From the NCBI RefSeq assembly GCF_003019035.1, contig NZ_CP027447.1: a stretch of 64,000 bases of DNA. One strand, written 5' to 3'. Shown here piece by piece: positions 28,024-31,000 of this stretch. Below the pieces are notes generated by a model. It had not been told where the DNA came from. It was given only the letters and a program-made list of their open reading frames with translations, and made no database searches. A program made the translations under genes and the position numbers. Within the stretch, counting starts at the first letter, position 1, and each line of letters begins with the position of its first letter. The stretch comes from Escherichia coli (GTDB lineage: Bacteria > Pseudomonadota > Gammaproteobacteria > Enterobacterales > Enterobacteriaceae).

Positions 28024-31000
28024 ATGAACAAAATTTTTAAAGTTATCTGGAATCCAGCGACGGGCAGTTACAGCGTTGCCAGCGAAACGGCGAAAAGTCG
28101 TGGGAAGAAGAGCGGGCGCAGTAAGCTGTTAATTTCTGCACTGGTTGCGGGTGGATTATTGTCGTCATTTGGGGCATTAGCTCAGGCAGGGTTAGATACA
28201 GGTACTGGTGTTACCCCTGCTGGTCATAATAATGGAACAGGTTGGATAGCTATTGGTACCGATGCTGAAGCAAGCACTCATACCACAACGAATGGCGCAG
28301 CAACTGCCGTGGGCTACTACTCCAAAGCGTTAGGTATGTGGAGTACTACGTTAGGTGCATATAGCCAATCGAATGGCGATTCTTCACTGGCTCTTGGGGT
28401 TAAAGCACAATCTAACGGTGACCGCTCTATTTCGATGGGCGCTTCGTCGAGTGCAAGCATAAATGCGGGTTACTCCATCGCGATGGGGGTATTTGCTTTC
28501 ACCGATGCAGAGTACGCGGTAGCCCTTGGCAATGAGAGCAAGGCACTTGGTAAATACAGCCTTGCATTAGGAAACGCAAGTCAGGCATCTGGCGAATCCA
28601 GTATTGCATTAGGTAACACAAGTGAAGCCAGCGAACAAAATGCGATTGCGCTGGGGCAAGGCAGCATTGCAAGCAAAGTGAACTCAATCGCGTTGGGCAG
28701 TAACAGTTCGTCTGCAGGAGAGAATGCCATCGCGCTAGGAGAGGGCAGTGCCGCGGGAGGCAGCAACAGTCTAGCTTTCGGTAGTCAGTCCAGGGCAAGC
28801 GGCAATGATTCTGTCGCCCTCGGTGTAGGGGCTACAGCAGCGACCGACAATTCTGTCGCTATCGGCGCAGGATCGACCACAGATGCAAGCAATACAGTTT
28901 CAGTTGGCAACAGCACAACAAAACGCAAAATTGTTAATATGGCTGCCGGTGCCATAAGCAACACCAGTACCGATGCCATCAACGGCTCACAGCTTTATAC
29001 GATCAGTGATTCAGTCGCCAAACGGCTCGGGGGAGGCGCTACTGTAGGCAGCGACGGCACCGTAACCGCACTAAGCTACGCGTTGAAAAGCGGTACCTAT
29101 AATAACGTGGGTGATGCTCTGTCAGGAATCGACAATAATACTCTGCAATGGAATAGAACCACGGGGGCATTCACCGCTGCACACGGCTCAAATACCACCA
29201 GTAAAATCACTAATGTTGCTAAAGGTACTGTTTCTGCAACCAGCACCGATGTAGTAAACGGCTCTCAATTGTACGACCTGCAGCAGGATGCTCTGTTGTG
29301 GAACGGCACCGCGTTCAGCGCCGCACACGGCACCGACGTCACCAGCAAAATCACCAATGTCACCGCTGGTGAGCTCTCTGACACCAGCACCGACGCCGTC
29401 AACGGTTCTCAGCTGAAAGCGACCAAGGACGATGTAGCGGCAAACACCACCAACATCACTAACCTGACGAGCGAAGTGGCTGGCAACACCACCAGTATCA
29501 CTAACCTGACTGATACGGTGACTAACCTCGGTGAAGACGCCCTGAAATGGGACGACGCCGCAGGCGCATTCACCGCTGCACACGGCACTAACGCCACCAA
29601 CAAAATCACTAACGTCACCGCTGGTGAGCTCTCTGACACCAGCACCGACGCCGTCAACGGTTCTCAGCTGAAAGCGACCAAGGACGATGTGGCGGCAAAC
29701 ACCACCAACATCACTAACCTGACGGGCGAAGTGGCTGGCAACACCACCAGTATCACCAACCTGACTGATACGGTGACTAACCTCGGTGAAGACGCCCTGA
29801 AATGGGACGACGCCTCAGGCGCATTCACCGCTGCACACGGCACTAACGCCACCAACAAAATCACCAATGTCACCGCTGGCGAACTCTCTGATACCAGCAC
29901 CGACGCCGTCAACGGTTCTCAGCTGAAAACCACCAACGATAACGTGGCGACCAACACCACCAATATCGCCACTAACACCACCAATATCACCAACCTGACT
30001 GACGCTGTTGACAGTCTCGGTGATGATTCCCTGCTGTGGAACAAAGCGGCTGGCGCATTCAGCGCCGCGCACGGCACCGATGCCACCAGCAAAATCACCA
30101 ACGTCACCGCTGGCGAACTCTCTGATACCAGCACCGACGCCGTCAACGGTTCTCAGCTGAAAACCACCAACGATAACGTGGCGACCAACACCACCAATAT
30201 CGCCACTAACACCACCAATATCACCAACCTGACTAACGCTGTTGACAGTCTTGGTGATGATTCCCTGCTGTGGAACAAAGCGGCTGGCGCATTCAGCGCC
30301 GCGCACGGCACCGATGCCACCAGCAAAATCACCAACGTCACCGCTGGCGACCTGACTGCTGGCAGCACTGACGCGGTTAACGGCTCCCAGCTGAAAACCA
30401 CCAACGATAACGTGGCGACCAACACCACCAATATCGCCACTAACACCACCAATATCACTAACCTGACTGATACGGTGAATAATCTCGGTGAAGACGCCCT
30501 GAAATGGGACGACGCCGCAGGCGCATTCACCGCTGCACACGGTACTAACGCCACCAACAAAATCAGCAACGTACAAGCTGGCATAGTCTCCTCTGACAGC
30601 ACTGACGCCATAAATGGCTCACAACTATATGGTTTGGCTGATTCATTCACGTCCTATCTGGGTGGTGGTGCTGATATTAGCGATACAGGTTTATTAACCG
30701 GGCCAACCTATAGTATTGGCGGCACTGACTACACTAACGTCGGGGATGCTCTGGCCGCAATTAACACTTCATTTAGTGATTCTCTCGGTGATGCCCTGCT
30801 CTGGGATGCGACAGCCAATGACGGTGCTGGTGCATTCAGCGCCGGTCGCGGGGTAGATAACACCGCCAGTAAGATTACTAACGTCGCAAATGGTGCAATC
30901 TCTGCCACCAGCAGCGACGCGATTAACGGCTCACAACTCTATACCACCAATAAGTACATCGCTGATGCGCTGGGCGGTGATGCAGAAGTTAACGCTGACG

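Follow-up and report, generated by a model that had tools for sequence, protein, structure and literature searches.

The DNA analysed here is a 64,000-nucleotide stretch of Escherichia coli contig NZ_CP027447.1 (RefSeq assembly GCF_003019035.1), referred to below as the window. A single open reading frame on its + strand, at 28024-32970, encodes 1648 amino acids and holds an entire array of tandem repeats. Judged from its sequence and position, this gene is the E. coli positional orthologue of UpaG, EhaG and SadA, a trimeric autotransporter adhesin. The repeats very probably make up the modular stalk array of a UpaG/EhaG-type adhesin, in which whole units are lost or gained by misaligned pairing at the exact runs that the units share.

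Pfam searches of the 1648-residue protein returned an extended signal peptide region (ESPR), YadA_head (110.5 bits over 8 stretches), YadA_stalk (451 bits over 14 stretches) and YadA_anchor. No NCBIfam family scored above its cut-off in a search of the same protein. The anchor region also matched the Hia anchor structures 3emo and 2gr7. A YadA anchor and a head, neck and coiled-coil passenger behind a signal peptide were thus found together, as in an adhesin of type Vc secretion. The best solved relatives were crystal fragments of Salmonella SadA (2yo0, E = 9e-139; 2yo3; 2ynz; 3zmf), and homology to these trimeric fragments suggests a homotrimer on the cell surface. Identity to UpaG of CFT073 was 71% across residues 1-1648, and the gene at exactly the same chromosomal position in CFT073 is annotated upaG. 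The window's flanks are E. coli chromosome, with mtlA, mtlD, mtlR, yibT and yibL on one side and lldP, lldR and lldD on the other; the order mtlD, mtlR, yibT, yibL, DUF3251 gene, adhesin, lldP, lldR, lldD was found in both SCU-301 and CFT073. Position by lldP, a SadB-type gene upstream and full-length similarity to a named member place the gene in the UpaG/EhaG/SadA group. A review (PMC7247748) describes EhaG and SadA as orthologues of UpaG by position and notes extensive differences among their passenger domains. The features of the gene, all on the + strand, were as follows.

28024-32970, + strand: putative trimeric autotransporter adhesin gene (1648 amino acids), assigned from Pfam domains, the SadA structures and the upaG locus of CFT073.
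28024-28167, + strand: ESPR, residues 1-48 (PF13018, 62.5 bits).
29167-29310, + strand: degenerate unit 0, 48 amino acids, a connector and neck with hardly any coiled coil (connector-motif spacing; D4/D5 family copies 61-79% identical).
29311-29565, + strand: unit u1, 255 bp or 85 amino acids, with neck, five-heptad coiled coil and DALL connector; 94.9% identical to u2.
29566-29820, + strand: unit u2, 255 bp or 85 amino acids; 99.2% identical to the sole 85-residue unit of the LWY24 allele.
29821-30054, + strand: unit u3, 234 bp or 78 amino acids, with a four-heptad coiled coil; 95.7% identical to u4 and 100% to LWY24 unit 2.
30055-30288, + strand: unit u4, 234 bp or 78 amino acids (tandem repeat searches and unit alignment).
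30289-30522, + strand: unit u5, 234 bp or 78 amino acids, a hybrid (unit alignment; 83-86% identical to the other units).
29869-30000, second copy 30103-30234, + strand: perfect run of 132 bp, the longest (exact-repeat search).
30019-30116, second copy 30253-30350, + strand: perfect run of 98 bp (exact-repeat search).
29953-29992, also 30187-30226 and 30421-30462, + strand: 21-bp (one-heptad) sub-repeat AACACCACCAATATCACCACT (Tandem Repeats Finder period 21, 1.9 copies, 94% matches).
31397-31480, + strand: 42-bp tandem duplication, two copies of a 14-residue YadA-head rung (repeat searches, 95% identity).
32785-32967, + strand: YadA-type membrane anchor, residues 1588-1648 (PF03895, 68.5 bits against a cut-off of 22.7).

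The array was resolved by Tandem Repeats Finder into a 255-bp period (29310-29967, 2.6 copies, 93% matches, score 1141) and a 234-bp period (29740-30572, 3.6 copies, 88% matches, score 1181), with 42- and 21-bp periods nested within it. A repeat search gave start-to-start spacings of 255, 255, 234 and 234. A first-pass annotation, made from the letters of the window, had described tandem 255/234-bp repeats forming five in-frame units in this gene, and both searches confirmed it. Its term 'near-identical' held for u1/u2 and u3/u4 and failed for the remaining pairs, which share just 80-86% DNA identity; between the 85- and 78-residue types identity is about 80-83%. Degenerate copies flank the five units on both sides. 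In u5 a coiled coil of the 78 type is joined to a connector of the 85 type, and a 59-bp exact run is common to u5 and u1 (29527/30484). Further exact runs measured 77 bp (29359/29614) and 71 bp (30154/30388 and 29920/30388). Repeats of such length and identity are far above chance.

Each unit encodes a neck followed by a left-handed coiled coil, 3-6 heptads long and with asparagines in its core, and then a connector of the DALL type; these domain names rest on the daTAA paper and on PDB-chain alignments. The SadA fragments 2ynz, 3zmf and 2yo2 align over the unit in the order coiled coil, 'EDALxWD..GAFSAxHG', a neck motif beginning 'KITNVx', and coiled coil. The heptads read VxxNTTx / IxxLTxx and number five in 85-residue units, four in 78-residue units and three in the 71-residue units of CFT073, so the 21 bp by which 255-bp units exceed 234-bp ones equal one heptad exactly. 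The AACACCACCAATATCACCACT sub-repeat occupies the spot of this one-heptad difference in u3, u4 and u5 and is a likely substrate for length steps of 7 amino acids.

Two side observations concern the repeats themselves. A terminator scan returned 17 sites against 6.7 expected, and the surplus was largely one small hairpin, GTGGTGTTGGTCGCCAC, repeated in u3-u5 (29944-29960, 30178-30194 and 30412-30428, - strand). The surplus is a scan artefact of the repeats and not a set of real terminators, although hairpins within tandem arrays can favour template switching. Antisense open reading frames of 130-295 amino acids lie in the adhesin gene (29815-30576, 30153-30650, 29188-29583 and 31798-32685, - strand), two of them crossing the array. 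They gave no Pfam match and look like stop-free by-product frames of a long, repetitive and compositionally biased gene.

Variation was surveyed in 127 full-length proteins, drawn from the 120 best database relatives and the members of the window protein's own cluster. These fell into 18 array types with 3-6 units of 71, 78, 85 or 92 amino acids, the commonest being 85, 78, 78, 78 (56 of the 127). Zero amino-acid substitutions separated 42 allele pairs, which differ solely by indels of 7, 14, 71, 78, 85 or 156 amino acids and span at least four allele backgrounds; repeat indels therefore arise faster than point substitutions fix in the adhesin gene. Both members of such a pair lay on chromosome-size contigs in the case of P0037 or P0042 (1666 amino acids) versus P0099 (1581 amino acids). 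A zero-substitution series of gains, from 1549 to 1627 to 1705 amino acids, counts as real variation because assembly collapse cannot create a gain. Through these gains and chromosome-level pairs, variation in array length within E. coli is firmly supported. The gene thus resembles a length-variable intragenic array of the BadA type, in that its in-frame units are long and similar and their number differs among isolates.

Two alleles were compared with the window unit by unit. The units of the common 1549-residue allele of LWY24 are positional orthologues of u2-u5 (95-100% DNA identity); the 297-bp length difference is wholly explained by the absence of one 255-bp unit and one 42-bp copy from that allele. 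The UpaG array of CFT073 reads 78, 78, 78, 71, 71, and its units are 96.6-98.3% identical to one another, while their identity to units of the other two alleles reaches 89.7% at most, a homogeneity that would be expected of concerted evolution and is read here as such. Three further alleles of 1648 amino acids carry 13 differences from the window in total, all within the array and each matching the same-position residue of another unit. These apparent gene-conversion patches could be mis-phased short reads. Some longer relatives (P0094, P0001, P0004 and P0007; 1850-1902 amino acids) have an extra PF00236 among their precomputed domains and arrays of 76-residue units or of six 78/71-residue units. 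Their N-terminal head is different, and they seem to form an allele family of their own that is closer to UpaG.

The 42-bp duplication, which the first-pass annotation had also reported, is present and encodes the 14-residue copies it named. Tandem Repeats Finder gave it a span of 31397-31485, within the second YadA-head region, where the best YadA_head stretch is residues 1117-1143 (Pfam). It varies in its turn: counted by an anchored length measure, the rung was present once in 63 alleles, twice in 35 and three times in 3. P0129 (1634 amino acids) equals the window protein minus one 14-residue rung and is a hybrid of both 42-bp copies, the exchange lying inside a 5-bp stretch between two mismatches.

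Records of the window's own clone differ in length too. Protein P0121, identical to that of the window, occurs on 51 contigs; the index lists 50 collection blocks for it, three with contigs above 1 Mb. The draft GCA_044896315.1 is 100% identical to the window across 24.9 kb. SCU-301 (phylogroup F, sequence type ST967) is the only complete genome in the E. coli collection with flanks at least 99% identical to the window; over 62 kb the two differ by 14 mismatches and 37 one-base gaps (99.88-99.95% identity). Its adhesin gene has no substitutions relative to the window and a clean 234-bp deletion of one unit. The exact prefix (1977 bp) and exact suffix (2868 bp) of the SCU-301 gene overlap by 132 bp, which places the junction within the longest perfect run. 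The same four-unit allele of 1570 amino acids (P0012) stands on a metagenome contig that matches the window without a difference across 13.9 kb of flanks. Four contigs carry this allele in all: SCU-301, the metagenome contig and two others.

Deletions were simulated one at a time for all pairs of exact runs of 15 bp or more in the window gene, and the products were compared with database proteins. Five simulated products were identical to database proteins.

29869/30103, run of 132 bp: P0012, 1570 amino acids.
30019/30253, run of 98 bp: P0029, 1570 amino acids.
30154/30388, run of 71 bp: P0031, 1570 amino acids.
29920/30388, run of 71 bp at a spacing of 468: P0104, 1492 amino acids.
29503/29758, run of 57 bp: P0011, 1563 amino acids.

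The flanks of L006-L009, compared with regard to the four-unit carriers as a clade, held 0-2 differences, none of them informative. The first-pass annotation had expected stalk length to change by gain or loss of units, and this is borne out by the range of 3-6 units in the 127 public alleles, the 42 indel-only pairs, SCU-301 and the five simulated deletions.

In the proposed mechanism each unit would add a self-contained increment of length to a trimeric fibre, in the stretch that separates its N-terminal head from its C-terminal part. Neighbouring units sharing in-frame perfect runs of 57-132 bp would pair out of alignment, either in an unequal exchange of sister chromosomes or when the replication fork slips or switches template, and whole units would be removed or added. 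The same process at the 21- and 42-bp repeats would give steps of 7 and 14 amino acids. Products would stay in frame because all repeat periods are multiples of three, and with the heptad register kept the protein would remain functional at a changed length. Exchange among units would also homogenise them by concerted evolution. The expected effect is a fibre changed in length by one module, with head and anchor untouched; this effect, like any on reach, adhesion or antigenicity, is inferred, and so are the molecular pathway and its rate.

An on/off phase-variable contingency locus, which works by slippage in short repeats (1-9 bp) that breaks the reading frame or changes the promoter, was considered and rejected, the periods in the gene being 12, 21, 42, 234 and 255 bp, all multiples of 3. 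All variant alleles remain full-length, which is size variation and not an on/off switch.

Several observations weigh against reading the differences within the window's clone as units lost in the cell. In this lineage the indel-only variants all fall short of the window allele in length, each by a deletion at an exact run. The five alleles recovered in the simulation include no gain, and their junctions sit in exact runs of 57-132 bp, places at which graph assemblers join paths. If the path through a de Bruijn graph is cut short at an exact run that two units share, the product is the very one that a biological deletion would leave. Apart from SCU-301, the deletion variants of the lineage come from draft or metagenome assemblies, the carriers of the simulated alleles being mostly single draft contigs or a 14x metagenome contig. 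Among the 15 members of the window protein's 90% cluster, 8 are N-terminal fragments of 489-625 amino acids on contigs that end inside the array, some with chimeric ends, which upholds the caution of the first-pass annotation about short-read assemblies here. SCU-301 is itself not error-free, carrying many indel errors (the 37 one-base gaps in 62 kb) and many 'frameshifted' genes. Its project combined Nanopore and MiSeq reads in Unicycler or, failing that, in Flye + Pilon, the latter with a residual error of 0.2-1% (PMC7407071); the many frameshifted genes fit the Flye + Pilon route. Long reads should give the correct count of 234-bp units. That the array is fixed at five units in the window's clone, its shorter records being assembly collapses at the exact runs, is on balance unlikely. 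The four contigs with P0012 came from different pipelines, and one of them is a complete genome built from hybrid long-read data; other backgrounds hold the zero-substitution gains and chromosome-level pairs described above; the capacity to vary is therefore real even if some records are wrong. The four-unit alleles within the clone are probably biological. The annotation had also called the copy number of the window provisional. This stands in so far as contigs often break in the array, and does not in so far as five units recur in 50 or more assemblies, of which three have contigs over 1 Mb; the five-unit count, the largest and by far the most reproduced for the lineage, is probably correct.

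The recurrence of the five-unit allele also shows that the array is not hyper-unstable, a further point against frequent unit loss and gain, as is the 1:1 correspondence of the LWY24 units with those of the window. Together with the prevalence of the 85, 78, 78, 78 type and the same 4650-bp gene in 39 of the 39 complete genomes listed with the 96% allele, this would suit an old, essentially stable allelic polymorphism in which unit numbers are historical and no ongoing rate is raised. We regard such a history as improbable, given the 42 zero-substitution pairs in at least four backgrounds and the within-clone difference seen in SCU-301 and the metagenome contig. At the other extreme, a fast length 'rheostat', with module and heptad indels outpacing point mutation and clonal populations mixed for fibre length, is highly doubtful; if it were true, selection would match adhesin reach to O-antigen or capsule thickness, or would permit escape from anti-stalk antibodies. 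Loss and gain of whole units by misaligned pairing is retained, and the pathway may take either of two forms. We give an even chance to RecA-independent template switching or replication slippage over the RecA-dependent recombination that the first-pass annotation had proposed. Perfect homology in the array is at most 132 bp, the repeats are directly adjacent, and the P0129 exchange lies inside 5 bp, a stretch far below the homology required for RecA pairing. Units of 234-255 bp at about 95% identity are possible RecA substrates too, however, and sequence alone cannot tell the two pathways apart. In E. coli, template switching that does not need RecA is a prominent route where the perfect homology of tandem repeats is below 200 bp (PMC7145654).

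The loci of UpaG (CFT073), EhaG (enterohaemorrhagic E. coli) and SadA (Salmonella) share with the window the layout yibL, DUF3251/SadB-type gene, adhesin, lldP, and the proteins share the same domain set. UpaG has the same kind of unit array, and SadA fragments align to the units and to the C-terminal part. The window allele has 1648 amino acids against 1778 in UpaG, with EhaG at 160 kDa and SadA at 147 kDa in the review table (PMC7247748); it has two 85-residue and three 78-residue units and an N-terminal head shorter than that of CFT073 UpaG. All of this is variation within one kind of protein. Bartonella henselae BadA, the trimeric autotransporter for which such arrays are described most explicitly, likewise has a highly repetitive passenger, in whose arrays the number of domains differs between isolates, long reads are needed, and reshuffling by recombination or slipped-strand mispairing has been proposed (PMC8859334). 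BadA differs in its far greater size, its many more repeats and the badA pseudogenes beside it, which are possible donors; no pseudogene copies were seen adjoining the window adhesin gene. The plasmid and chromosomal tetA assays of Lovett and Cox in E. coli also used directly adjacent repeats and gave clean one-unit deletions and expansions, with RecA-independent deletion between short tandem repeats (101-787 bp homology; PMC7145654). Those assays were engineered reporters with measured rates, whereas the window array is known from natural end products only.

Upstream of the adhesin gene, and ending 43 bp before it, lies the gene of an inner-membrane lipoprotein. RefSeq calls its orthologue a DUF3251 protein in SCU-301 and CFT073, yet it had no match in the copies of Pfam or NCBIfam searched. 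The structure it matched, 4c47, is one that we take to be SadB, the helper lipoprotein of SadA. A promoter-like site and a terminator-like hairpin flank the lipoprotein/adhesin pair, both as pattern matches only; promoter-like sites in the region number 9 against a shuffled expectation of 7.7, which is not above expectation.

27077-27106, + strand: promoter-like site TTGACA, 18-nt spacer, TAAAAT, upstream of the putative two-gene operon (consensus scan, 11/12 matches; pattern match only).
27297-27980, + strand: SadB-type inner-membrane lipoprotein gene, 227 amino acids (PDB 4c47 'inner membrane lipoprotein', E = 7e-69).
32994-33023, + strand: terminator-like hairpin with a 13-pair stem and T-rich tail, 24 bp past the stop codon (pattern match only).

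Elsewhere in the window an Rhs toxin locus occupies 11531-19635.

11531-15571: Rhs core protein, 1346 amino acids, with a DUF4329 tip.
16016-16873: HEAT-repeat gene yibA.
17185-18321: intact transposase of the ISAs1 family.
18336-19109: orphan Rhs tip with a Tlde1-like domain.
19114-19635: Imm57 immunity gene.

Two 339-bp segments of this locus (14738-15076 and 18333-18671) are about 94% alike, which suggests an orphan toxin/immunity module displaced by the insertion sequence. A Fic-domain protein of 430 amino acids (4597-5892, - strand) is encoded between aldB and yiaY, and a HicA/HicB toxin-antitoxin pair lies beyond aldB at about 2080-2700 (by SCU-301 annotation); these are accessory genes within an otherwise core region. 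The annotation of SCU-301 (L002 8204-10853, opposite 53867-56528 of the window) treats rfaJ, rfaY, waaZ, an ISAs1 transposase gene and the Rhs core gene as pseudogenes with frameshifts, and the window has intact open reading frames at those places (55512-56528, 54796-55494, 53867-54724, 17185-18321 and 11531-15571). Together with the 37 one-base gaps this points to residual long-read errors in SCU-301, not to real pseudogenes.

The feature as such is already known, being an allele of a named and structurally characterised adhesin family with ordinary length variation. The additions made here are incremental, namely a list of array types, the allele pairs that differ by indels only, and the agreement of observed deletion products with predicted ones. 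The array offers a clear case, from nature, of tandem repeats whose junctions fall within their longest exact runs; it opens no new question. Short-read assemblies are unreliable at the array, half of the entries closest to the window allele breaking there, and typing or virulence calls that separate upaG/ehaG alleles by length will split otherwise identical strains. For UpaG and EhaG, aggregation, biofilm formation and binding of extracellular-matrix proteins have been reported, and both have been proposed as vaccine antigens (review PMC7247748). This gives some value to knowing where the fibre changes most readily; neither head nor anchor is affected by unit indels.

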